DNA of 61,631 nucleotides. It comes from Candidatus Bathyarchaeia archaeon (GTDB lineage: Archaea > Thermoproteota > Bathyarchaeia > Bathyarchaeales > Bathycorpusculaceae). This document shows, piece after piece, positions 421 through 45,282 of the stretch (within the stretch, counting starts at the first letter, position 1; each line of letters starts with the position of its first letter). Below the pieces are notes generated by a model. That model did no database searches and was not told the DNA's origin. It saw nothing but the letters and a program-made list of their open reading frames with translations. The translations under genes were made by a program, and so were the position numbers. The DNA lies in contig JBEKKX010000014.1 of the NCBI GenBank assembly GCA_050010515.1, forward strand, positions 1-61,631, written 5' to 3'.

Positions 421-981
421 TTGGTGTTAAGATTGCTCGAAGGCAGGAATGTAAATCTAAAAGTTGTCGAGAAAGAGGATTTGGCATTTCTTGCAGAATG
501 GTTTAACAATCCTGATGTCTTCGGTGAATACAATCCTTTGACACAGGTGTCCAGAACACAGATAGAGAAGTATTATGGAGAAAAGAAGTTTGAAGAAACC
601 GAATTCTTCATTGAAGGGAAAAATGGACGCAGAATTGGTTACATATGGCATTTCAATGTAATTCATCTTGCAGGGAATCAATTGGAAATAGGTTATTTCA
701 TGGTTCCAACTGAGAGAGGCAAAGGCTACTGCACAGAAGCCGTCAATATTATGGTGGACTACTTGTTTCTTTCAAAGAACATAGAGCGCATACAAGCCCA
801 GACTGACGTGAAAAATGTGGGTTCACAGAAAGTTTTGAAAAAAGCAGGTTTCAGGATAGAAGGAACAATTCGCAAACCCTTTTTCCTCAGAGGACAACTC
901 AGAGACACTTATTTGTATAGCATTCTCAGAGAAGAATGGAAAGAACCAAAAATACTGACAAAAACCACTAAAGTAGAATAA
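421..981 (+). CDS. GNAT N-acetyltransferase, RimJ/RimL family
   Basis: EIGY...ERGKGYCTEA acetyl-CoA motif; N-x-x-S-QKVLxKAGFxxEG; ends YSILREEW. Confidence 0.9.
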   Translation: MVLRLLEGRNVNLKVVEKEDLAFLAEWFNNPDVFGEYNPLTQVSRTQIEKYYGEKKFEETEFFIEGKNGRRIGYIWHFNVIHLAGNQLEIGYFMVPTERGKGYCTEAVNIMVDYLFLSKNIERIQAQTDVKNVGSQKVLKKAGFRIEGTIRKPFFLRGQLRDTYLYSILREEWKEPKILTKTTKVE

Positions 982-1069
982 TTCCTGCAATCATAACTTC
1001 ATATTCCATGCCAAACCCCAGAGATAGTATCACTTTTTGCATTTTTAAAAATTATTTCACATCAACATG

Positions 1070-1116
1070 ATAAAAAGCTCCAGCTTATCAAAGAGAAATA
1101 GCATAAAATAGCAGAT
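1070..1116 (+). repeat. Imperfect ~46-bp direct repeat, copy 2 (downstream of GNAT gene)
   Basis: ataaaaagctccagcttatcaaagagaaatagcataaaatagcagat. Confidence 0.75.
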
Positions 1117-1501
1117 CAGTGAAGCGCGCGCTCACACAATGGAGATGACAAAAAAAAGATATTTTATCTGGAAAAGGCCTGGTCACTAATTTTTAACTCT
1201 ATCAAGAGTTAATCATGAGTTTATTAATTGTTGTTCTTTTTTTTAGTCCAGAAAGACACTGTTAAGTTTGTTGTGGAAAAGTGCAGTCGGAAACGAGTAG
1301 CGTGTACGGCTGTTCCAAAATTAGTTAGCAATGTACCTGATGTTTCTGGCTTTACATTGATTATGTGTGTTAAACGGCTGATTGAGCGGTTAGAAGCATA
1401 ATGATTATGCAGAGCTGAGAATTAAAAGTAATTTTTGCTAATCCTCTCAGATTATGCTAGTTGTGACTTGTTGAAAAAAGAAAGAGAGGATTGAAAAAAG
1501 T

Positions 1502-2344
1502 TTATGACTGCACGTTGGCTGCTACGGTTGCTATGTCACATATGTCTATCTGGTATGTGCCATGGAAGTCCATGCTTTCGTCGTAGTTCGGCATGCCCGG
1601 TACGGCTCCGTAGTCGTTTGAAATTGCTCTTAGGTCGGCTCGTGTCACTATGTTGTCTGTTCCTGCGTTGATTATATCGAACCTGTTAAACATAGTCTGT
1701 CTCTCTATTGATCGGTGTACTGTGCCGCTTAGCAGAGGTATTCCGGTGATGTTTAGGGTGAATTCGCTCCATTGATTTGTTACGTTCAGTTCACCGTACA
1801 CTTTGGTTTCGACAGGTGTGATTTTGAGGCTCGATTGGACGTTTATGCTGTAGCCTGTTTCTGAGTTGCCTGTTTTGATCACTGTTCGTGTGATATTGAC
1901 GTTGACGACGCTCCAAGTGCCGTTCAGATAAAAGTTGTTTCCTTGGAAGTCGGTCATGGTGAAGTTGGCTTCCACAAGTCTTGCTGCATAGAAGTTGTAG
2001 GAGATGTTGCCGTCTTGTCTGAAGTTGGTTGTGTTAGTCCAAATCGCATTAGCTGAGTCGAGCCATCTTGCCGGAACTCTGCTTTGGCTTGTAGTTGCAG
2101 CCATTAATGTAAGAGCGCCTTTGACTTCTTGTGTTCCCCACGTGGTAATGTTGCCATCTATTCTTACCCAGTTGCTTCGAATCGGAATTATGCAGGCTGG
2201 AGGTGCCGACATCATAGGCGAGTTATGAGGCGTGGTTGGACCGACCGATGGTACCGCATTTGCGAATGCTCCTGCAAAATTTAGACCAGTTACTGCGATT
2301 ACTGTCAAGAGAATTGCTGCAATTATTATTTTCATTCTAATCAT
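1502..2344 (-). CDS. Secreted protein with C-terminal dockerin-like (paired Ca-binding loop) domain
   Basis: Signal peptide; many N-x-S/T sequons; C-terminal DIINAGTDNIVTRADL...YG...DFHGTYQIDICDIATVA pattern. Confidence 0.7.
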   Translation of the reverse strand: MIRMKIIIAAILLTVIAVTGLNFAGAFANAVPSVGPTTPHNSPMMSAPPACIIPIRSNWVRIDGNITTWGTQEVKGALTLMAATTSQSRVPARWLDSANAIWTNTTNFRQDGNISYNFYAARLVEANFTMTDFQGNNFYLNGTWSVVNVNITRTVIKTGNSETGYSINVQSSLKITPVETKVYGELNVTNQWSEFTLNITGIPLLSGTVHRSIERQTMFNRFDIINAGTDNIVTRADLRAISNDYGAVPGMPNYDESMDFHGTYQIDICDIATVAANVQS

Positions 2345-2515
2345 CTCAAGTCCCTGAATGCCTCAGTTTCGTGGGGTCAAATAAAAGCGTTTCTGAGCTT
2401 CTTTTCGTGTAATATTGTTCATAACTGTTTATTTCTGCTTATTATTGTTCATTTAGGTTTATTTTTATTTTTTAACTTGGAATCTGTGTAATTCATGCCG
2501 AATGAATGCGTTTCG

Positions 2516-2611
2516 TGGCAGAATGGGAAACAGGCAGGTTCCCGATCACAGATGAGACCGATGGGAGTGCGGCGGGTGCCAGAGCTCTGATGCCTCGATG
2601 TCGCATAGCCA
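2516..2611. ncRNA. Candidate structured non-coding RNA (family unknown)
   Basis: GC-rich stretch in an AT-rich spacer, closed by GTGGC/GCCAC; internal stems GGGAA/TTCCC, TGCGGC/GTCGCA, CAGAG/CTCTG. Confidence 0.35.
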
Positions 2612-2781
2612 CTTCAGATTAAAATTTAATCCCAAACCACAACCCAAACTCAAAAAGACTAACGAACGGAAAGACTGGAATCCAAAGATCCAACATTATA
2701 AATCGTTAAGGAAATCGAGAACAGAAGTTTAACCAAAAATTGCTTTTAAATCCCATAGTAGGAATAAAAACCATTTTAAAC

Positions 2782-3099
2782 CTATTTTGGATTCACTTGG
2801 GGGTTTTTGTCTCCGACCTTAACGGTTACGTTTTGCTGATTGTTCTGAGGAGTTTTTTTTCTAGACATATGTGTTACTATTGTGAATACTAGCCAGACGA
2901 TGACCCCATAGACTACCGCATTGAAGATAGCCTTTATCAAGACGTCACCGTAGATTGCGCCACCTACCTTGTACGTCGTTGTGGCAGTGGGTAGCTTAAG
3001 CATGTTATACAAAGCCTGTCCCGGAGGAATCGAAGTTGCACCTAGAGATATTAAGAAAACAACTACAAACACTGCTAAGAACACTATTGCTCCTTTCAT
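2782..3099 (-). CDS. Small membrane protein (2 TM), hypothetical
   Basis: Two hydrophobic helices, basic/polar tail. Confidence 0.75.
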   Translation of the reverse strand: MKGAIVFLAVFVVVFLISLGATSIPPGQALYNMLKLPTATTTYKVGGAIYGDVLIKAIFNAVVYGVIVWLVFTIVTHMSRKKTPQNNQQNVTVKVGDKNPQVNPK

Positions 3100-3250
3100 T
3101 TTTTTCCAAATCCTACTTTACTTTTATCAGGTTTATTATAATATAAGCTTTTTTGAAAGTCGACACAACCTCAACGTGCACGAATGCTCTTTTTGTAATT
3201 GCTATATAGGGAGCATATGATTTTTCCGAGCACTAGAATTATAAGTTATT

Positions 3251-3886
3251 TTAGGATTTTATTGTTTTTAGCCATTCCAGATAAGTTTCTCTCATTTTTT
3301 GCAGGTTTTCCAGTACATGCACGTCTTCCATGTTTTCAAGTTTTCGGACTTGGTCAGCTTCTTCCTTGCGTACTCTTAGCTTCATTTCTTTGCCGTTTGG
3401 AAGTTTCGTGTAAACGATGCTTTCCTTGTAATCAGTTGGCAGTATGTAAACGGGCACAAAAGCCTTCAAACTCATAATCGCCGAATTAGTAATCAAGGTG
3501 TCACCTATGCCATTGGCGATTTTAGCAACCGTGTTTGACGTTGCAGGGGCTATGAGCAAGAACTCGTATTTGCGCATTTGCAGCCAAGCGGCAAGAAAAG
3601 GAGAATTAGAATTAAGCTCAACCTGCACTTTCGGAAAATTCCTCTTCAACTCATCCTCAAGCCTATAAAACTTCAACACGATGTCAGCAGCTTTCGAAAC
3701 AAAAACCTCAATCTCCACAACATCTTCCGACTGCTTCTTCAAATCCTTCATAACTTCCAATACTTCAGCTATTTTATCGCCGGCACCAGTAATACCCCAA
3801 GCAACCTTACGCTTTTTCGCTTTAACGGCTTCAACCATAACGATCAACCCATTATTTTTCCCCATACTTCTCCATGAAATCTGCAA
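3251..3886 (-). CDS. afpA: Archaeoflavoprotein (HFCD flavoprotein family); true start probably ~3838
   Basis: VAWGITGAG, FVSKAA, APATSNTVAKIANGIGDTL and PTD motifs. Confidence 0.85.
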   Translation of the reverse strand: MQISWRSMGKNNGLIVMVEAVKAKKRKVAWGITGAGDKIAEVLEVMKDLKKQSEDVVEIEVFVSKAADIVLKFYRLEDELKRNFPKVQVELNSNSPFLAAWLQMRKYEFLLIAPATSNTVAKIANGIGDTLITNSAIMSLKAFVPVYILPTDYKESIVYTKLPNGKEMKLRVRKEEADQVRKLENMEDVHVLENLQKMRETYLEWLKTIKS

Positions 3887-4448
3887 ACCGTTTTACAGTC
3901 TTCTTCAAACTCCTAAATCCTTCCTCATCCAACTTGACACCCTCCAAGGTGTCCTTAGACCAGAAGGTTGCACCAAAATTAGCGCCGAAGAATCCTCCAC
4001 TTACAGGTATCATTCCGTTTATGATGTAGAAGGTGTGAATCTGCATAAGCGCGAATTCTTGACCGCCGGATCTGTCTCCTCCCGTCGCTATGCCCATGCC
4101 GATTTTGCCTTTGAAAACATTTTTGTCTCCAGCAGCTAATGCGCGGGTTCTATCCATCACTGCTTTCGTTTGGGCGCTTACCCCGCCGTTATACACTGGT
4201 GTCGCAAAGATAATTCCTTTTGCCTGGATAAGCAACGTATAAAGGTTCTGCACATCATCTTGGAAAAAACATTCCTTGTTTTTGAGGCAATAATCACAAT
4301 GTGTGCAAAACTCGATCCATTTTCCCCGAACCGTCCACAACTGCGTTTCAAACCCTTTCTCGTTGAGCATTCTCAGAGCTTCCTGCAAAACATAATCAGT
4401 TGCTTGTTCTCTTGGGCTTCCGCAAATTCCAAGTATCATAATCTTCAA
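3852..4448 (-). CDS. Iron-sulfur flavoprotein (Isf)/flavodoxin family protein
   Basis: GICGSPR, CxxCxxCx5C cluster motif, ATPVYNG, GGQE. Confidence 0.9.
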   Translation of the reverse strand: MKIMILGICGSPREQATDYVLQEALRMLNEKGFETQLWTVRGKWIEFCTHCDYCLKNKECFFQDDVQNLYTLLIQAKGIIFATPVYNGGVSAQTKAVMDRTRALAAGDKNVFKGKIGMGIATGGDRSGGQEFALMQIHTFYIINGMIPVSGGFFGANFGATFWSKDTLEGVKLDEEGFRSLKKTVKRFADFMEKYGEK

Positions 4449-4534
4449 TAGAAGTTAACTGTTAATTTGCATTAAAGCATTACTCTAAACACAACATCAA
4501 GACGCTAAACTTAAAAGAGAAATTTGAAGGGTGA

Positions 4535-4708
4535 ACCGAAATCCTTGATGCACCTAAGACCGTCGCCATAGCAGCTTCAAGGGGGTTAAACGTGTTTGTG
4601 CTTGTTGTTGGCAGAATGACCAACCGCATGACTCAGGAAATAGAAAATGTGAACATAAAAAGCGTAGCCAACATAAGCTACGAAGTAAGAGACGCAAAAA
4701 CCCCCTAA
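4535..4708 (+). pseudogene. Gene remnant, possibly the C-terminal part of an archaeal wHTH regulator (COG1497-like)
   Basis: Frame TEILDAPKTVAIAASRGLNVFVLVVGRMTNRMTQEIENVNIKSVANISYEVRDAKTP* begins immediately after a stop; family assignment from memory only. Confidence 0.3.
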
Positions 4709-39282: not shown

Positions 39283-40038
39283 ATGCGTGTGCTCGTTGAG
39301 CTTAAGGCTAAAGCCAATTGTGTTTACGACTTGATATACCATCACAAAATGCAAGGCTTCATTTACGAACTACTGCGCAGCTCTACCTACGGCGATTTGC
39401 ATGACAAGCGGGGCTACAAGTTTTTCTGTTTCTCCAACATTTTCCCCAGCGTAGACATGCATGAGGGCGACATGCGTCATTTTTTGGTATCTTCTCCTGA
39501 CGAAGGCTTGATCGGTGTGGTTGCTGGCGGGTTAGAGAAGCTTCAACATGACAAGGAACGAGTAAACATTGGTGAGATGTCGTTTTCCGTGGAAAACACT
39601 TCTGTTTTAGCGCCCAAGATCGGCGGCTCATGTGTTTTGGCGGCAGGCACACCCATTGTAGTTAGGATACCCAAAGCCAACTATGCCCGTTACGGCATTG
39701 TGCCACCTCAGGATTACGAGTACGTTTACTGGCGCAAACAATACCATTTAGAAACATTCGTTCGGCAAGTAGAAGACAGCCTGTTTAAAAAATATAACCA
39801 ATACTATGGCACAAGAGTGGAAGCGTTCCCAATCTTCGAACAGTTCACCTTCCAAAAACAAGTCTGCAACCATCTGGTTCTTGATGGGTCAGAAATCAAA
39901 ATTTTTGGGACTGTTTGGCGTTTTTCCTTTAATAGTATTGATAACGACAAACGGAAGTTCTTGCAATTTGCTCTTGATGTCGGGTTGGGTGAACTAAACA
40001 GCATAGGATATGGATTCATGAACCTTACAAAATCGTGA
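39283..40038 (+). CDS. cas6: CRISPR pre-crRNA endoribonuclease Cas6
   Basis: YHHKMQGFIY, LHD, FFCFSNIF, SSPD, TPIVVRI, C-terminal G-loop GLGELNSIGYG. Confidence 0.93.
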   Translation: MRVLVELKAKANCVYDLIYHHKMQGFIYELLRSSTYGDLHDKRGYKFFCFSNIFPSVDMHEGDMRHFLVSSPDEGLIGVVAGGLEKLQHDKERVNIGEMSFSVENTSVLAPKIGGSCVLAAGTPIVVRIPKANYARYGIVPPQDYEYVYWRKQYHLETFVRQVEDSLFKKYNQYYGTRVEAFPIFEQFTFQKQVCNHLVLDGSEIKIFGTVWRFSFNSIDNDKRKFLQFALDVGLGELNSIGYGFMNLTKS

Positions 40039-40179
40039 GCGAAGTAATCCGTTGTGAAAGATCGTCGAAATGAGGCTAGTCACTAAGCATAATAAACGTT
40101 AGTTTCCGATAACTGTAACTCCAAAAACAAATGGCAAAAAAGCTTGGAGATAGAAATTAAAAGTAGCGCAAAACCATTT

Positions 40180-40200
40180 GTTAAACTTATAAATAAAGTA
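40180..40200 (+). promoter_or_regulatory. BRE/TATA-like promoter for a leaderless cas10 operon
   Basis: aaacttataaata about 25 nt upstream of the cas10 ATG, no SD. Confidence 0.5.
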
Positions 40201-40214
40201 ATAGATTATAAAAT

Positions 40215-42203
40215 ATGCGATCTGATACCTTCATATCTGAACTACATGACATTGGAAAATTGGCCGATAAGGAGGCCCTTAAAAAAGTCTGTCCCGGTAT
40301 CAAAATTAAGGGTCATGCATTCTATGATTTTGATTTTACGTTATTCGGAATTCAAAAACCCTCTTCACCAAGTTGGTACTTACAATATGCAGAAGAGGAT
40401 ATTCTGAACCATGCCGACAGGGATTTATTGAACTCTTCCGAGGCAATTCGGCTTATTCCTGATCCTCAAATTCGTGCAGACATTCTTCTGACAAAGATGG
40501 CTGACGGTATCTCAGCTTCAATAACACGGCAAATCCACAAAGGACAAGCCGGCGAAGGCGTTTACAAACTTTGGAATCCTGAATATTATCAGAAAAAAGG
40601 AAAATACTGGGCGGCTTTCAAGGATATTCCAAGCCTTAGATGTATGTTCCAGTATATCGATTCATGCGTTGCCTACCAGAACTTTCTAGATGATTTTAAG
40701 GAAAATCTTGATTTGACACCTGAAGACAAGAGTCCACCCGGCAATACTGTCTCGCTTTATACCCATCTTGAACTATCTGGTAAAATCTTTCGTGTTTTTA
40801 AGAAGCACTCAGAACTTCGATTACAAAATAGCCAATACGTATTGATTAACAATGGTCAAGCGATAAATAGCATCAAAGAGGCATGCGGGCACAGAGACAT
40901 AGATAAAGAAGAAGGAAAATGGATATTCAGATTAATATTCTGTCATATTAACTTCTCCCAATCTCTTATCAGACTTCAAGACCTTAATGTTTTAAAGATA
41001 AGAGAGAAACAAATTAGAGACTTTGCGAAGAATGAAAACACCAAAGATTACATTCTGTTCTTCACTAACGATTTTATGTGCTTGTTTATTCCTAAAAATG
41101 AAGAACTGTCGATAACGAAACTAATGAGACCTTTTGTGGAGAAAGGCCTGATTCTTGATTATATAGAAATGGAAGCAGATCTCAATCTGTTGACCTCTTC
41201 TTTCGAAAGAGCCTACCGCTTATTTCATTCCTTGCCGCAAACAAGCAGGCATCTGAAGGTTTATGAAAAAACATTGAATGGTGAGCTTCCACCAGAACTG
41301 GGACCAGATATCTGTGACTCTTGCCAAATTCGAGAAGGCAAAGAGAGAATGAAGGGGCAGGTCCGAGAATGTTTATGTCCTGTATGCACCGAAACTCGTG
41401 ATATGGGAGAACCGGCAGTTGAGTACGCTAAGTGGGAAGGAAAGGCAGCATGGATGAAAATTACACTGGAACAAGACCAAATAGAGAAACTGCTCCGTCG
41501 ACTGTTTGAAGAATACGTTAATGACTCTCCGATGATGAGGGGTGTTCAGAGCTACTGCAAAACTGAACTTAAGGAATGCTTCAGACCACTCGCCGTGCGA
41601 ATAGACTTCATAAAGGATTATAAAACTTTGTTACGTCTATTCAAAGAGAAAATATACACGTTAAAGAATAAAACAGGCGATCTAATCTTCAATAAAGAAA
41701 CTTTTCTATATCCTATTGATGAATTTGACGAATTTGGAATATTTAAGGTGGATTCAGGCAAAATAATTCTAGCCGTCATTGACACATTTTTTGATTGCAT
41801 GAATCAAATTTTTCCAAAATGTACAAATGATAATTCGCCTATTAGACTTGCCATCAGTTTTGCATCAGTAAAATACCCCTACCAAAAGCATTGGCGCTTT
41901 CTATCCAAACCAATGGGATTAGTTGACATTCAACAGCAGCCTTCGGGAAGGTTGACGCTCAAAGCCTCGCAGTACAAAAGTCTTAAAGAGGGAATTGGAG
42001 AACCTAAAGCCAATTTTAATCATTTCTTACACCGTCTAAAACAGATAAAAGCAAGTTTGAATGAGGAAACAATGATTCAACTTGAAGTTTATGAAAGAAA
42101 TAACCGTAGAAAGTTCCCAATCTTGTTGGAATTCCTTAAAGAAGGACTAACTCCAGAGCAAATACTTAACTTTTACGAATTAACGATGGAGGAAGAATTT
42201 TGA
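40215..42203 (+). CDS. cas10: Divergent Cas10-like large subunit (HD + Zn finger + degenerate Palm domains, no GGDD)
   Basis: ELHDIGK...ADGISAS HD, PED...SLYTH, CDSC...CPVC; Palm2 GGDD position reads YPIDEFDE; LAISFA..KYP. Confidence 0.8.
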   Translation: MRSDTFISELHDIGKLADKEALKKVCPGIKIKGHAFYDFDFTLFGIQKPSSPSWYLQYAEEDILNHADRDLLNSSEAIRLIPDPQIRADILLTKMADGISASITRQIHKGQAGEGVYKLWNPEYYQKKGKYWAAFKDIPSLRCMFQYIDSCVAYQNFLDDFKENLDLTPEDKSPPGNTVSLYTHLELSGKIFRVFKKHSELRLQNSQYVLINNGQAINSIKEACGHRDIDKEEGKWIFRLIFCHINFSQSLIRLQDLNVLKIREKQIRDFAKNENTKDYILFFTNDFMCLFIPKNEELSITKLMRPFVEKGLILDYIEMEADLNLLTSSFERAYRLFHSLPQTSRHLKVYEKTLNGELPPELGPDICDSCQIREGKERMKGQVRECLCPVCTETRDMGEPAVEYAKWEGKAAWMKITLEQDQIEKLLRRLFEEYVNDSPMMRGVQSYCKTELKECFRPLAVRIDFIKDYKTLLRLFKEKIYTLKNKTGDLIFNKETFLYPIDEFDEFGIFKVDSGKIILAVIDTFFDCMNQIFPKCTNDNSPIRLAISFASVKYPYQKHWRFLSKPMGLVDIQQQPSGRLTLKASQYKSLKEGIGEPKANFNHFLHRLKQIKASLNEETMIQLEVYERNNRRKFPILLEFLKEGLTPEQILNFYELTMEEEF

Positions 42204-42841
42204 ATGACAACAAAGTCTTAATGCATTTTCAGTTAAGCACACAGGCGGTAGCAATAGGCGAGCGAGTAAAAGCCGGTACTTTCCGTCCTTGCTTGGAAAC
42301 AATACCGACCTCCACTCTTAAAGGTGCTTTCAAAGAGCAGTTCGGTCTGGAAAACATTTTCGCTATCGGGTTTTTCAACAATAAGTTATATGAAAAGGCG
42401 TTTTTTACCTATTCACCATTTGATAAGGCAGTGAACACATCTAAACTGCCAATAACCGCAGAATATCTTAGGCCAAAAACTGGTTTTCCTCAAGTTTTGG
42501 CAGATATTTACATAATAAAAAATGAACCCGCTGAATTACTTATGAACTCCATGCCCTCCATTATTTCGATTGGAGCTTTAAAAAGTAAAGGCTTTGGAAG
42601 ATGTGGCATTAAATTCATTGAAGAAGTTGCAATAAAATTAAAAATTGGTTATTTAAAGGGTCGAATGCTTGAAGAAGAAGCAAATGCTTTTGAAATCAGA
42701 AGAATTATTAAAGCGTCTTATGGATACTTGTTTTGTCCCACAAACAAGATAACTGGAGTTTACAAGAGAAGCTTATTCGAAAGAAGTATAATCGAAGGAC
42801 CAGAAATTATGATAGATGGAGAGTATCAATATGATTTCTAG
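42200..42841 (+). CDS. cas5: Cas5-group RAMP subunit (type III-F/H-like)
   Basis: IPTSTLKGA RAMP helix, G-loop IGALKSKGFG; translationally coupled to cas10. Confidence 0.75.
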   Translation: MNDNKVLMHFQLSTQAVAIGERVKAGTFRPCLETIPTSTLKGAFKEQFGLENIFAIGFFNNKLYEKAFFTYSPFDKAVNTSKLPITAEYLRPKTGFPQVLADIYIIKNEPAELLMNSMPSIISIGALKSKGFGRCGIKFIEEVAIKLKIGYLKGRMLEEEANAFEIRRIIKASYGYLFCPTNKITGVYKRSLFERSIIEGPEIMIDGEYQYDF

Positions 42842-43427
42842 TTCTGGAATTTTGCATGACATAATGAAGCGTATATTAAATGATACAGATGTATTTGCCC
42901 CTCCTTATGACCGAACTCAAAGAGAAAACATTCTATTATTCCAAAAAGAGGATTGGAAAAAACTGAGTTTGGCTTTTGAGAAACGTGATAAGTCAACATT
43001 CAATTGTCTGATCGACAAGCGGCTACAAAATCTTCATGCTGAGGCAAGTTGCTCACAACATTGGCGAAAGGTCCAAATCGAAACATTACTACCACTTGGC
43101 TTATCTCTCAAAAATGCATTTGAAACTAAACCTAATCTTTTATCCTTGCTATTTGATTTGTTTGATTGTTTTGGATTATTTGAATGCAGACTACCCAACA
43201 TGGAAGATTACGGAACGGTAATCGAAAATCACACAAAACCAATAGTTGAGCAATTCTTTTTTCACCAAATAAACAAGGCGAATATGGATCAAAAACGTGC
43301 TTTAGCCAGAGTCTTTGAGTATGTAAAGGAGTTATATAACTTGAATATTGATGTAGTTGAAATAGCCTTCTTTGTTAGGAAGCTGAATTCGTTGACTGAA
43401 TTGGTGGAGGTGATAAAAGATGAATAG
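42816..43427 (+). CDS. Putative divergent Cas11/small subunit (helical)
   Basis: Position between cas5 and cas7 with overlaps on both sides; helical-looking sequence; no recognised motif. Confidence 0.55.
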   Translation: MESINMISSSGILHDIMKRILNDTDVFAPPYDRTQRENILLFQKEDWKKLSLAFEKRDKSTFNCLIDKRLQNLHAEASCSQHWRKVQIETLLPLGLSLKNAFETKPNLLSLLFDLFDCFGLFECRLPNMEDYGTVIENHTKPIVEQFFFHQINKANMDQKRALARVFEYVKELYNLNIDVVEIAFFVRKLNSLTELVEVIKDE

Positions 43428-44256
43428 TATTGAAGATTTTAAAGCCTTACCTCAAAGCAAACAGCAAGGAATTATAACTATTTTCCAAATCCCAATTAGC
43501 ATTTCGGTTCAAGAGGGATCATTTCTCCATATTGGTGGTAGCCCTTCCCCTCTTACAGAAAAGAAAGCGCAAGTTTTTTCTATTGATGGAGAGCCTGTAA
43601 TACCTGCCTCAAGCTTTAAGGGAGCATTTAGATATCAGTTAGAGCAATGGTTAATCAAGGATAAAGACGAATTAAAAAGACTCTTAGGTTTAAGAAATGA
43701 TGATTGCCTAAGACCATGCATTCCTGCACCAAGACCCTCAATAGCAGAACAGCAGCTAATCAATATCGGTTATCGTCAAAAACATTGTGATATTAAGGTC
43801 GAAGAAGACGAGATGATTCTAAACAAAGATATTGGCGTATGTCCAGTTTGCTATTTTTTTGGTGCTGGAGGCTTGATGGGATTACTGAGAATCCCCAATT
43901 TTTTGCCTAAAGTTGGGGAACACATAATTGACCAGACTAGCATAAGGATAGACAGAAAAACTGGAACAGCAGCTATAGGCGCAATTCTTAAAGGAGAACA
44001 AGTGAAACCTAAAACCGTATTCAACGGGTCACTTGAAATTGTGTCAAAACAGGGAACTTTTGTACTAGGAAGGGCACGTGAAATCGGAGGGGCAAAAATC
44101 GATATGTGGCTGGATGGGATTGCATCGAAACCTACTGAAGAAGCGCAACTTTTATTGATTAACAAACTCTTGATTCCTGCGCTAAGAAACATAACAGTCC
44201 TAGGCGGACAAAAAAGCAAAGGAGCAGGAAAAGTCACAGTGGAACTAAGCAAATGA
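43420..44256 (+). CDS. cas7: Cas7-group RAMP backbone subunit (Csm3-like)
   Basis: LHIGG, PVIPASSFKGAFR, CPVCYFFG, SIRIDRKTG, EQV, LGGQKSKGAG. Confidence 0.88.
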   Translation: MNSIEDFKALPQSKQQGIITIFQIPISISVQEGSFLHIGGSPSPLTEKKAQVFSIDGEPVIPASSFKGAFRYQLEQWLIKDKDELKRLLGLRNDDCLRPCIPAPRPSIAEQQLINIGYRQKHCDIKVEEDEMILNKDIGVCPVCYFFGAGGLMGLLRIPNFLPKVGEHIIDQTSIRIDRKTGTAAIGAILKGEQVKPKTVFNGSLEIVSKQGTFVLGRAREIGGAKIDMWLDGIASKPTEEAQLLLINKLLIPALRNITVLGGQKSKGAGKVTVELSK

Positions 44257-44319
44257 CTTCATCTGCCAATTCTGCAAACTTTAGTCAGATAGCCCAAGCA
44301 ACGCCCATTTTTTAATCCC

Positions 44320-44581
44320 TTCCGTATAATCGTAGCCTGTATAACTATTGAAAGAATAGATAAAGTGCGAAAGTAACTAAAGCAATACCTAAACTGTGTG
44401 CAGAATTCCGCGCTTGAAGGCGAGCTTAAAGAATGCGAAGTGGAAAAAATAAAGGTGTGCTTAAACAAGCTATATAAAAGGAAAAGAACTCCATCATTTC
44501 CCCTACGAAACACCTGACAAGAACTGGGACACCAAAGAAGTTTTAGGTACTGAAAAAAGCGAAGTAACAACCATGTTCTAG
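44320..44581 (+). pseudogene. cas2: Decayed cas2 (no start, in-frame stop, frameshifts)
   Basis: IIVACITIERIDKVRK*LKQYLNCVQNSALEGELKECEVEKIK...NSII...KEVLGTEKSEVTTMF*; matches Cas2 YLNWVQNSVFEGEL and E-x-LG-x-EK motifs. Confidence 0.8.
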
Positions 44582-44686
44582 TCAGCACCTATAAATCAAA
44601 CACGCCATCGCACCCTGACTTTTACGGCGCTCATAAAAGCTTAAATTCCATTGATTGATAGTTAAAACAAGGTTAAATAGCGCCCT
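44582..44686 (+). promoter_or_regulatory. CRISPR leader
   Basis: AT-rich region with TATA-like aaaagcttaaat, next to the intact first repeat; the degenerate repeat is at the far end. Confidence 0.65.
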
Positions 44687-44914
44687 GTTGAAATCGAGCT
44701 AAAGTAGAATTGAAATTAAGAAGATGTAACTGTTAGGTAATATTGTGTTTGAGTTGAAATCGAGCTAAAGTAGAATTGAAATGTATTACCCCACAGCCCT
44801 GATGTGTCATTCGCCCACATTGAAATCGAGCTAAAGTAGAATTGAAATACTGAACTGTTGACTTGGACCCGCCCAAGTGCCATCGTGGAAATATAGCTAA
44901 AATAGCATTAGCAG
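44687..44914 (+). CRISPR. Mini CRISPR array: 30-bp repeat GTTGAAATCGAGCTAAAGTAGAATTGAAAT, three 36-bp spacers
   Basis: Repeats at 44687, 44753, 44819 (G1A) and a degenerate copy at 44885; 3' ATTGAAAT handle. Confidence 0.95.
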
Positions 44915-45282
44915 CAGTAGCTAGCCCCTCAATCTATGAGGAGTAATGCAAACGATTCGGGATTTTTCGCAAACGGAAAGCTAACCTGAATTCCAGCGTG
45001 TTTGCGGGATGATTTTGGCGTCGGCAGCACCATTATCCATCGCTAATCAACGAGAAACTGGAATTTTTCAGCGCCTGTTTGAGATGACATTTATTTCTCA
45101 CAAACTTTCTTGCGGGAGGGTTTCTTTTGATATAAACATTTAGCGGAACCGTTGAGAAACCTTGTTAAAAAGCGTCAGCAGTTAAGCAGTTAATTGAATA
45201 TTTGGCGTTTTTACAGACTAGCAAGCGCAAGGATAATATAGAGATTCATTAAATCATCTTTTGAACTGAAGGTGCCGTTGTC

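Follow-up and report, generated by a model that had tools for sequence, protein, structure and literature searches.

Type III-F is a CRISPR-Cas subtype that, to our knowledge, has seen hardly any experimental study so far. The Makarova et al. 2020 classification is said to have defined it. According to the part of PMC11229360 that deals with type III-F, an HD domain is generally present in these systems and cyclase motifs or effectors never are. For the class of archaea concerned here, the part of PMC10541130 that treats CRISPR loci places type I and III loci in more than one fifth of Bathyarchaeia MAGs, and it also describes viral mini-arrays of four repeats and three spacers, the repeats being identical to those of the host and the spacers mostly having no identifiable target. 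Judged by the mini-arrays that this part describes, arrays this small whose spacers cannot be traced are nothing out of the ordinary in Bathyarchaeia.

The locus analysed here lies in a window (the whole stretch of 61,631 nt) that makes up one entire contig, C14, of a host genome of 2.38 Mb in 66 contigs, rated 98.5% complete. The same 61.6-kb contig also has housekeeping genes, among them those for a tRNA-splicing endonuclease, an IF-2B family protein and a CCA-adding enzyme. A Cas6 gene and four effector genes are found directly upstream of the array, on the same strand, and end 430 nt before the first repeat (Table 1). An earlier note on this DNA, made from the letters alone, had taken the system for type III, and the profile searches bore this out: the four effector genes were mostly missed by Pfam and NCBIfam, and the PADLOC models named them clearly. 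Cas7 is the single gene of its kind in the locus, both in the ORF list and by PADLOC. By its predicted gene set, that is Cas10, Cas5, Cas11 and a single Cas7 matching III-F profiles, the locus is a type III-F CRISPR-Cas system.

A scan of the Cas10 translation limited to motifs found an HD motif at residues 11-12 (ELHDIGK) and no GGDD, GGD[DE], G.DD or [ST]GDD motif. Scans of the ORFs flanking the locus against Pfam, NCBIfam and PADLOC gave no CARF or effector family. A Cas10 with HD and without a cyclase motif is normal for III-F, and the suggestion in the earlier note that the complex is nuclease-poor finds no support, as the N-terminal HD motif is retained. The G+C content across the locus (window 40000-45000) is 35-39%, below the genome value of 42.6%. 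Of the 119 other genomes of the genus, only 1 has a Cas10f homologue, a distant one with 28% identity. Probably, the III-F genes form an accessory cassette that was gained by horizontal transfer and makes use of the repeat type already resident.

Table 1. Coordinates in the window of the cas genes and the parts of the CRISPR array.
Feature	Position	Strand	Evidence or remark
Cas6 endoribonuclease gene (Cas6b-like)	39283..40038	+	Pfam Cas_Cas6_C 4.3e-13; TIGR01877 2.6e-27; PADLOC Cas6b 2e-63
Cas10 large subunit, III-F type	40215..42203	+	PADLOC PDLC01558 Cas10a|Cas10f 3.5e-111; motif scan of translation
Cas5 (III-F)	42200..42841	+	PADLOC Cas5_IIIf 2.4e-58
Cas11 small subunit (III-F)	42816..43427	+	PADLOC Cas11f 3.2e-43
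Cas7 RAMP backbone subunit (III-F)	43420..44256	+	PADLOC Cas7_IIIf 2.2e-80; weak TIGR02581 Csx7 8.1e-14
Presumed leader, cas7 to first repeat	44257..44686	+	inferred from position and from the degenerate repeat at the opposite array end
CRISPR repeat 1	44687..44716	+	reference copy (100%)
Spacer 1 (S1)	44717..44752	+	reverse complement reads QTQYYLTVTSS, start of a divergent InlB-B-repeat module
CRISPR repeat 2	44753..44782	+	100% identity to reference copy
Spacer 2 (S2)	44783..44818	+	origin untraced
CRISPR repeat 3	44819..44848	+	97%; first base A, not G
Spacer 3 (S3)	44849..44884	+	origin untraced
Degenerate terminal repeat, trailer end	44885..44914	+	70% identity to reference copy

The array itself (window 44687-44914) consists of four 30-nt direct repeats and three unique 36-nt spacers with an exact 66-nt period. 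Its presumed leader region contains a 109-aa minus-strand ORF (44259-44588), for which NCBIfam and PADLOC scans gave no family match. The repeat had no further occurrence elsewhere in the 2.38-Mb genome, nor was a second CRISPR array found there; candidate arrays on C9 and C43 were rejected, being simple tandem repeats. The sole Cas1 signal in the genome was a partial match (profile positions 188-236) at G000 contig C12:1959-2105, in a 131-aa open frame. This fragment is probably the remnant of a lost adaptation module, and no working adaptation module was found in the 66 contigs of this 98.5% complete genome.

All 24 words sampled from the array were present in ten public peat or wetland runs, and half of them or more in 16 run rows, dated 2017-2025. 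These rows represent coded studies that may be one campaign, and ten of them could be sources of this DNA. Four further runs with a partial share of the array words were checked for spacer-only pieces (protospacers) or variant arrays; on the array these yielded only contigs of 151-183 nt, with zero differences, and the parts left uncovered prove nothing. The array apparently no longer acquires spacers, and the identical copies across samples fit this without proving it.

Two features of the immediate surroundings were also recorded. A 55-aa, ATG-started ORF on the minus strand (window 44716-44883) crosses the array, running through spacer 3, a repeat, spacer 2, a repeat and spacer 1; it spans the array because the repeat and the spacers have no stop in that frame. 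Gene callers could annotate this mechanical ORF as a protein. Searches with the read-through gave 43 pattern matches in IMG/VR, none of which was confirmed by tblastn, and 18 candidates in a set of 5.8 billion proteins, none at E ≤ 10, although in both cases matches of 11 residues cannot reach the threshold. Just 3' of the array, window 44923-45100 is matched at 90-95%, in four runs from peat or wetland, by contigs that belong to other organisms of higher abundance. These contigs have a summed depth of up to about 135 and diverge from the window on both sides, and one form of them omits 44999-45062. This stretch contains ORFs of 34 and 44 aa only and, scanned as 44915-45105, gave no Rfam family and no folding signal on either strand (z -0.55 and -0.51).

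The earlier note had proposed that all three spacers are antisense to peptides of archaeal cell-surface proteins. Its coordinates and its reverse-complement translations, QTQYYLTVTSS for S1, WANDTSGLWGN for S2 and DGTWAGPSQQFS for S3, were reproduced exactly. However, the open reverse-strand frames of S1-S3 are in themselves uninformative, because 95.6% of random 36-mers from the host's own genome (n=20000) have at least one open frame on the given strand. The expected share of spacer triplets that are all open on the given strand is about 87%, and 88 of the 95 spacers of related arrays are open on either strand. S2 is open also in two plus-strand frames, and S3 in one plus-strand frame and all three minus-strand frames.

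For S1, the peptide reading was nevertheless borne out. When the array was searched by BLAST in 201 family genomes, four relatives had partial matches to S1 (30/34 in G155, 26/28 in G016 (same genus), 20/20 in G100 and 21/22 in G122), all four of which sit in open frames of 700-850 aa built of repeated modules with the pattern TQYYLTV.S..G.P.G.GWYD.G ... W.GDASG ... M..PKT. The claim of the earlier note that QYYLTVxS is a repeat of large archaeal surface proteins is confirmed for S1. Three of the four frames end in a hydrophobic stretch with an arginine/lysine tail, which the G122 frame lacks; read by eye, this looks like a membrane anchor. On a profile of eleven aligned modules (alignment A1), S1 in the frame originally proposed scored 14.5 bits, against a maximum of 6.8 bits for 5000 random 36-mers of the host's own genome read in any frame (0/5000 at 6.9). 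At eleven sites sharing at least 27/36 bases with S1, mismatches fell at codon positions 1, 2 and 3 of the predicted frame 26, 3 and 49 times, respectively, and two MAG loci, L122 and L110, encode exactly QTQYYLTVTSS.

The Pfam family PF18998 (divergent InlB B-repeat, Flg_new_2) matched 10 of the 11 modules at E ≤ 1, with a best value of 1.9e-5, and one whole protein of a relative reached 47.8 bits where the curated cut-off is 23.6; the host's own module protein and a viral module protein described below (L031) had no Pfam match at E ≤ 0.001. The module whose start S1 encodes resembles PF18998, weakly, in ten of eleven cases; in Bathyarchaeia it is a divergent branch with a signature of its own, TQYYLTV...GWYD...W.GDASG. 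On this sequence evidence, S1 in reverse complement encodes the start of a divergent InlB-B-repeat module, eleven codons that form its most conserved motif, and the module recurs in large, seemingly membrane-anchored Bathyarchaeia proteins. If the cas operon and the degenerate final repeat give the direction of the array, S1 (plus strand) runs antisense to the coding strand wherever a locus could be oriented by its gene, as type III RNA targeting would have it. The earlier remark that the antisense orientation of the spacers fits targeting of transcripts holds to this extent, for S1 only.

The explanation that we favour, with a probability of about 65%, is that this small III-F array, apparently no longer growing, is ordinary immune memory against foreign nucleic acid and not a device for self-regulation. 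Going by type III biology, the array would be transcribed on the plus strand behind the cas operon, Cas6 would cut each repeat so as to leave an 8-nt AUUGAAAU tag, and each crRNA would be held in a Cas10-Cas5-Cas11-Cas7 complex and guide it to transcripts complementary to the spacer; Cas7 would then cut the bound RNA, and the HD domain of Cas10 would cut nearby DNA. No cyclic-oligoadenylate signal has a place in this scheme because the Cas10 is without a cyclase motif. The crRNA of S1 would pair with the sense strand of the first eleven module codons, its source presumably being a virus, another mobile element or the DNA of another cell; most likely, one foreign source carried a surface-protein or adhesin gene. 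A III-F crRNA complementary to the predicted mRNA of a widespread InlB-B-repeat module provides a specific lead on the partners that infect this lineage or exchange DNA with it.

The source of the spacers is called foreign because it is absent from the genomes searched. The earlier note had seen no protospacer within the window, which is correct and holds for the whole 2.38-Mb genome: comparing the spacers with the host genome by BLAST, a check that the note had put forward, gave a longest match of 14 nt and no protospacer, with no match of S2 or S3 above 13-14 nt, and the best ungapped match of S1 outside the array was 25/36. Among 120 genomes of the genus (E ≤ 0.005) the matches were repeats, repeat-spacer junctions or the S1 motif, and there was no spacer match beyond the partial ones of S1. 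Among 332 genomes of the family (E ≤ 2e-4), 14 had an array match among the matches listed, namely the host, ten genomes with related repeats and three with S1 partial matches, and no protospacer was found among the matches listed. The INPHARED phage and PLSDB plasmid collections gave chance matches only (E 1 to 6). The exact 36-mer of S1 had no match in IMG/VR or in GTDB genome contigs and one in JGI metagenome contigs, the array's own contig, 100% identical over 14129 bases; the closest S1 site in the genomes searched was 30/36.

Genes with the module gave at least 599 pattern matches in GTDB genome contigs, of which 166 were confirmed, and 22 pattern matches in IMG/VR, of which one was confirmed (L031), counts that are not rates, since the two collections are far from equal in size and in the proportion of Bathyarchaeia DNA that they contain. 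Most of the 80 GTDB loci kept are Bathyarchaeia MAGs. At 44-58% identity the module was also seen in MAGs labelled Omnitrophota, Victivallales, Lentisphaerota, Verrucomicrobiota, Sumerlaeota and Limnocylindrales (loci L101, L103-L104, L106-L107, L109-L110, L113, L116, L118-L120, L124 and L126); its presence in bacterial-labelled MAGs reflects either sharing between archaea and bacteria or mis-binned contigs.

On the IMG/VR contig (8776 nt), the gene at 535-4551 codes for a protein of 1339 aa in which the module motif occurs six times and which is 52% identical to the query module; this gene adjoins genes for a large terminase subunit (2.8e-48) and for a neck or tail-completion protein (4.1e-19). 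Since the contig pairs a module gene with a terminase gene, tailed viruses can carry module proteins, and this one may be a host-recognition protein that borrows the surface module of the host's class. None of S1-S3 matched the contig, and a second viral scan with the L031 protein as query found nothing besides L031. The view taken in the earlier note, that the target belongs to a virus, a mobile element or another cell, fits the absence from the host genome and the occurrence of such a protein on one terminase-bearing contig.

With 166 confirmed loci in genome contigs against one in viral contigs, the DNA of another cell is a serious alternative source. S1 could have been taken from the chromosome of another Bathyarchaeia cell during interspecies DNA exchange, in which case the array would limit gene flow from relatives. 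This is supported by the overwhelmingly chromosomal distribution of the module family in the collections searched, and by the fact that the DNA sequences most like S1 lie in chromosomal genes of members of the family. A precedent is said to exist in haloarchaea, where Turgeman-Grott et al. 2019 (Nat Microbiol) reportedly described spacers against chromosomal genes of other species, in type I-B systems and with exact matches. The likeness to those spacers is that the nearest relatives of S1 are chromosomal genes of related species; the difference is that the present array is III-F and that no exact source was found. The exact S1 is missing from the species representatives among the 332 family genomes and from the GTDB contigs, 30/36 being the best match, and we regard a chromosomal origin as unlikely.

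The results for the other two spacers bear on the idea that all three derive from cell-surface or adhesin genes, possibly from one gene, of a virus, a large mobile element, a symbiont or a related archaeon. S1 certainly comes from such a gene family, and S2 and S3 have 56% G+C in common. However, S1 has only 28% G+C, and the best module-profile scores of S2 and S3 (-0.1 and -0.4 bits) are like those of random sequence, being reached or exceeded by 10.6% and 15.7% of random 36-mers. Six loci with module genes contained nothing beyond chance that resembles S2 or S3, and in 80 further loci on GTDB contigs, 821,299 bases in all, DNA matches did not exceed 14 and 13 nt and peptide matches had E of at least 0.26. 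The best peptide match of S2, NDTSGLVG in L053, was rejected, its frame being full of stops. Equating WANDTSG of S2 with the W.GDASG motif of the module was likewise rejected on the random-like profile score and on the absence of an 'AND' form from all 37 W..D.SG instances found after 220 module starts, so the earlier idea that xANDTSG recurs in surface domains finds no counterpart at this position of the module. A further match in the host, 'ASDTSELW', was dismissed, as it falls within an ORF named by eye as family-B DNA polymerase-like.

The sensitivity of the profile has to be kept in mind here. When eight real module-protein genes outside the training set were scanned, 9.0% of their 10251 in-frame 11-mers reached at least 6.8 bits and 0.58% at least 14.5 bits. 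S2 and S3 could therefore still derive from a module gene, since the test recognises only about 9% of true 11-mers, and for the same reason two unrecognised spacers are expected even if all three came from surface genes. Taken together, we consider a common surface-gene origin quite improbable. S2 and S3 would seem to come from foreign sequence; no finding links them to surface proteins, and none rules this out. What the earlier note had claimed for three spacers is thus upheld for S1 and without positive evidence for S2 and S3. As 12-codon translations are almost always open, and one in three of the 'surface-protein' readings survives testing, the array may serve as a cautionary case.

By its profile score, S1 ranks within the top 0.58% of the 11-mers of module genes, which is unusual for random acquisition and may reflect selection for a repeated, conserved motif, or may be ascertainment, such a spacer being the only kind that could be recognised at all. 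If selection were at work, S1, which is the spacer nearest the presumed leader, might have been kept because it pairs with a conserved module that is repeated within genes and common to many Bathyarchaeia surface genes and at least one tailed virus, so that one fixed crRNA in a III-F system without adaptation would recognise the whole class. This would amount to a broad, 'innate-like' policing of surface-gene traffic, whether adhesin-bearing elements or DNA of related cells, in place of a memory of a single invader. We regard it as a long shot.

The repeat family of the array is widespread both in the genus and in a second genus of the same family, and six other family genomes have arrays of 7 to 35 repeats. 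The 95 spacers of these six genomes include none that resembles the module (maximum 2.6 bits), none that matches the host genome and none that equals S1, S2 or S3. Given these negative results, targeting of the module is not a habit of this repeat family, and S1-S3 are private to this organism. No homologues of the III-F cas genes were found within the examined flanks of the related arrays. Several smaller occurrences of the repeat were noted as well. Another species of the genus has a mini-array of two repeats and one spacer with exactly the same repeat (L028, G211 C129, 4622-4717) and, on another contig, a lone copy of it (L029, G211 C111), and in a third species one isolated copy with 2 mismatches was seen (L006, G196 C5, 1501-1530). 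Spacer 19 of L025 (G276) and spacers 10 and 12 of L026 (G293) have 28 identical bases in common, which suggests a shared target in these two species of the genus. Some spacers are duplicated internally (7 and 13 of L024; 9 and 11, and 10 and 12, of L026).

The proposal of the earlier note that the III-F complex and its crRNAs damp the host's own surface-protein mRNAs can draw on the one module gene of the host (G000 C9:9333-11861, with TQYYLTVNS twice), on the small, static-looking array in which cyclase signalling is not expected, and on the chance that the MAG may have left unassembled a paralogue with the protospacer, but it is largely refuted and to us hardly credible, since S1 shares fewer than 24/36 bases with any site in that gene, its 25/36 match lying elsewhere, S2 and S3 have no match of note in the genome, the spacers are conserved in 0 of the 119 other genus genomes, a Cas10f is almost as rare among them, and the HD motif is intact.

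Like the type III-F systems surveyed in the relevant part of PMC11229360, the locus has the same gene set and an HD motif, and it is without a cyclase motif or an adjacent ancillary effector. It may differ from them in having its own Cas6 gene, a three-spacer array, a repeat that belongs to the long-array family of the genus, and a host among the Bathyarchaeia of peat; the case documents, for these archaea, III-F effector genes accompanied by a Cas6 gene and by a small array of which all samples show the same form. It also resembles the mini-arrays described in the part of PMC10541130 cited above, which occur in the same host class, likewise have four repeats and three spacers, and have equally untraceable targets. 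Those mini-arrays, however, are described there as lying on viral genomes and lacking effector genes, whereas the array analysed here stands behind a complete III-F operon on a contig with housekeeping genes.
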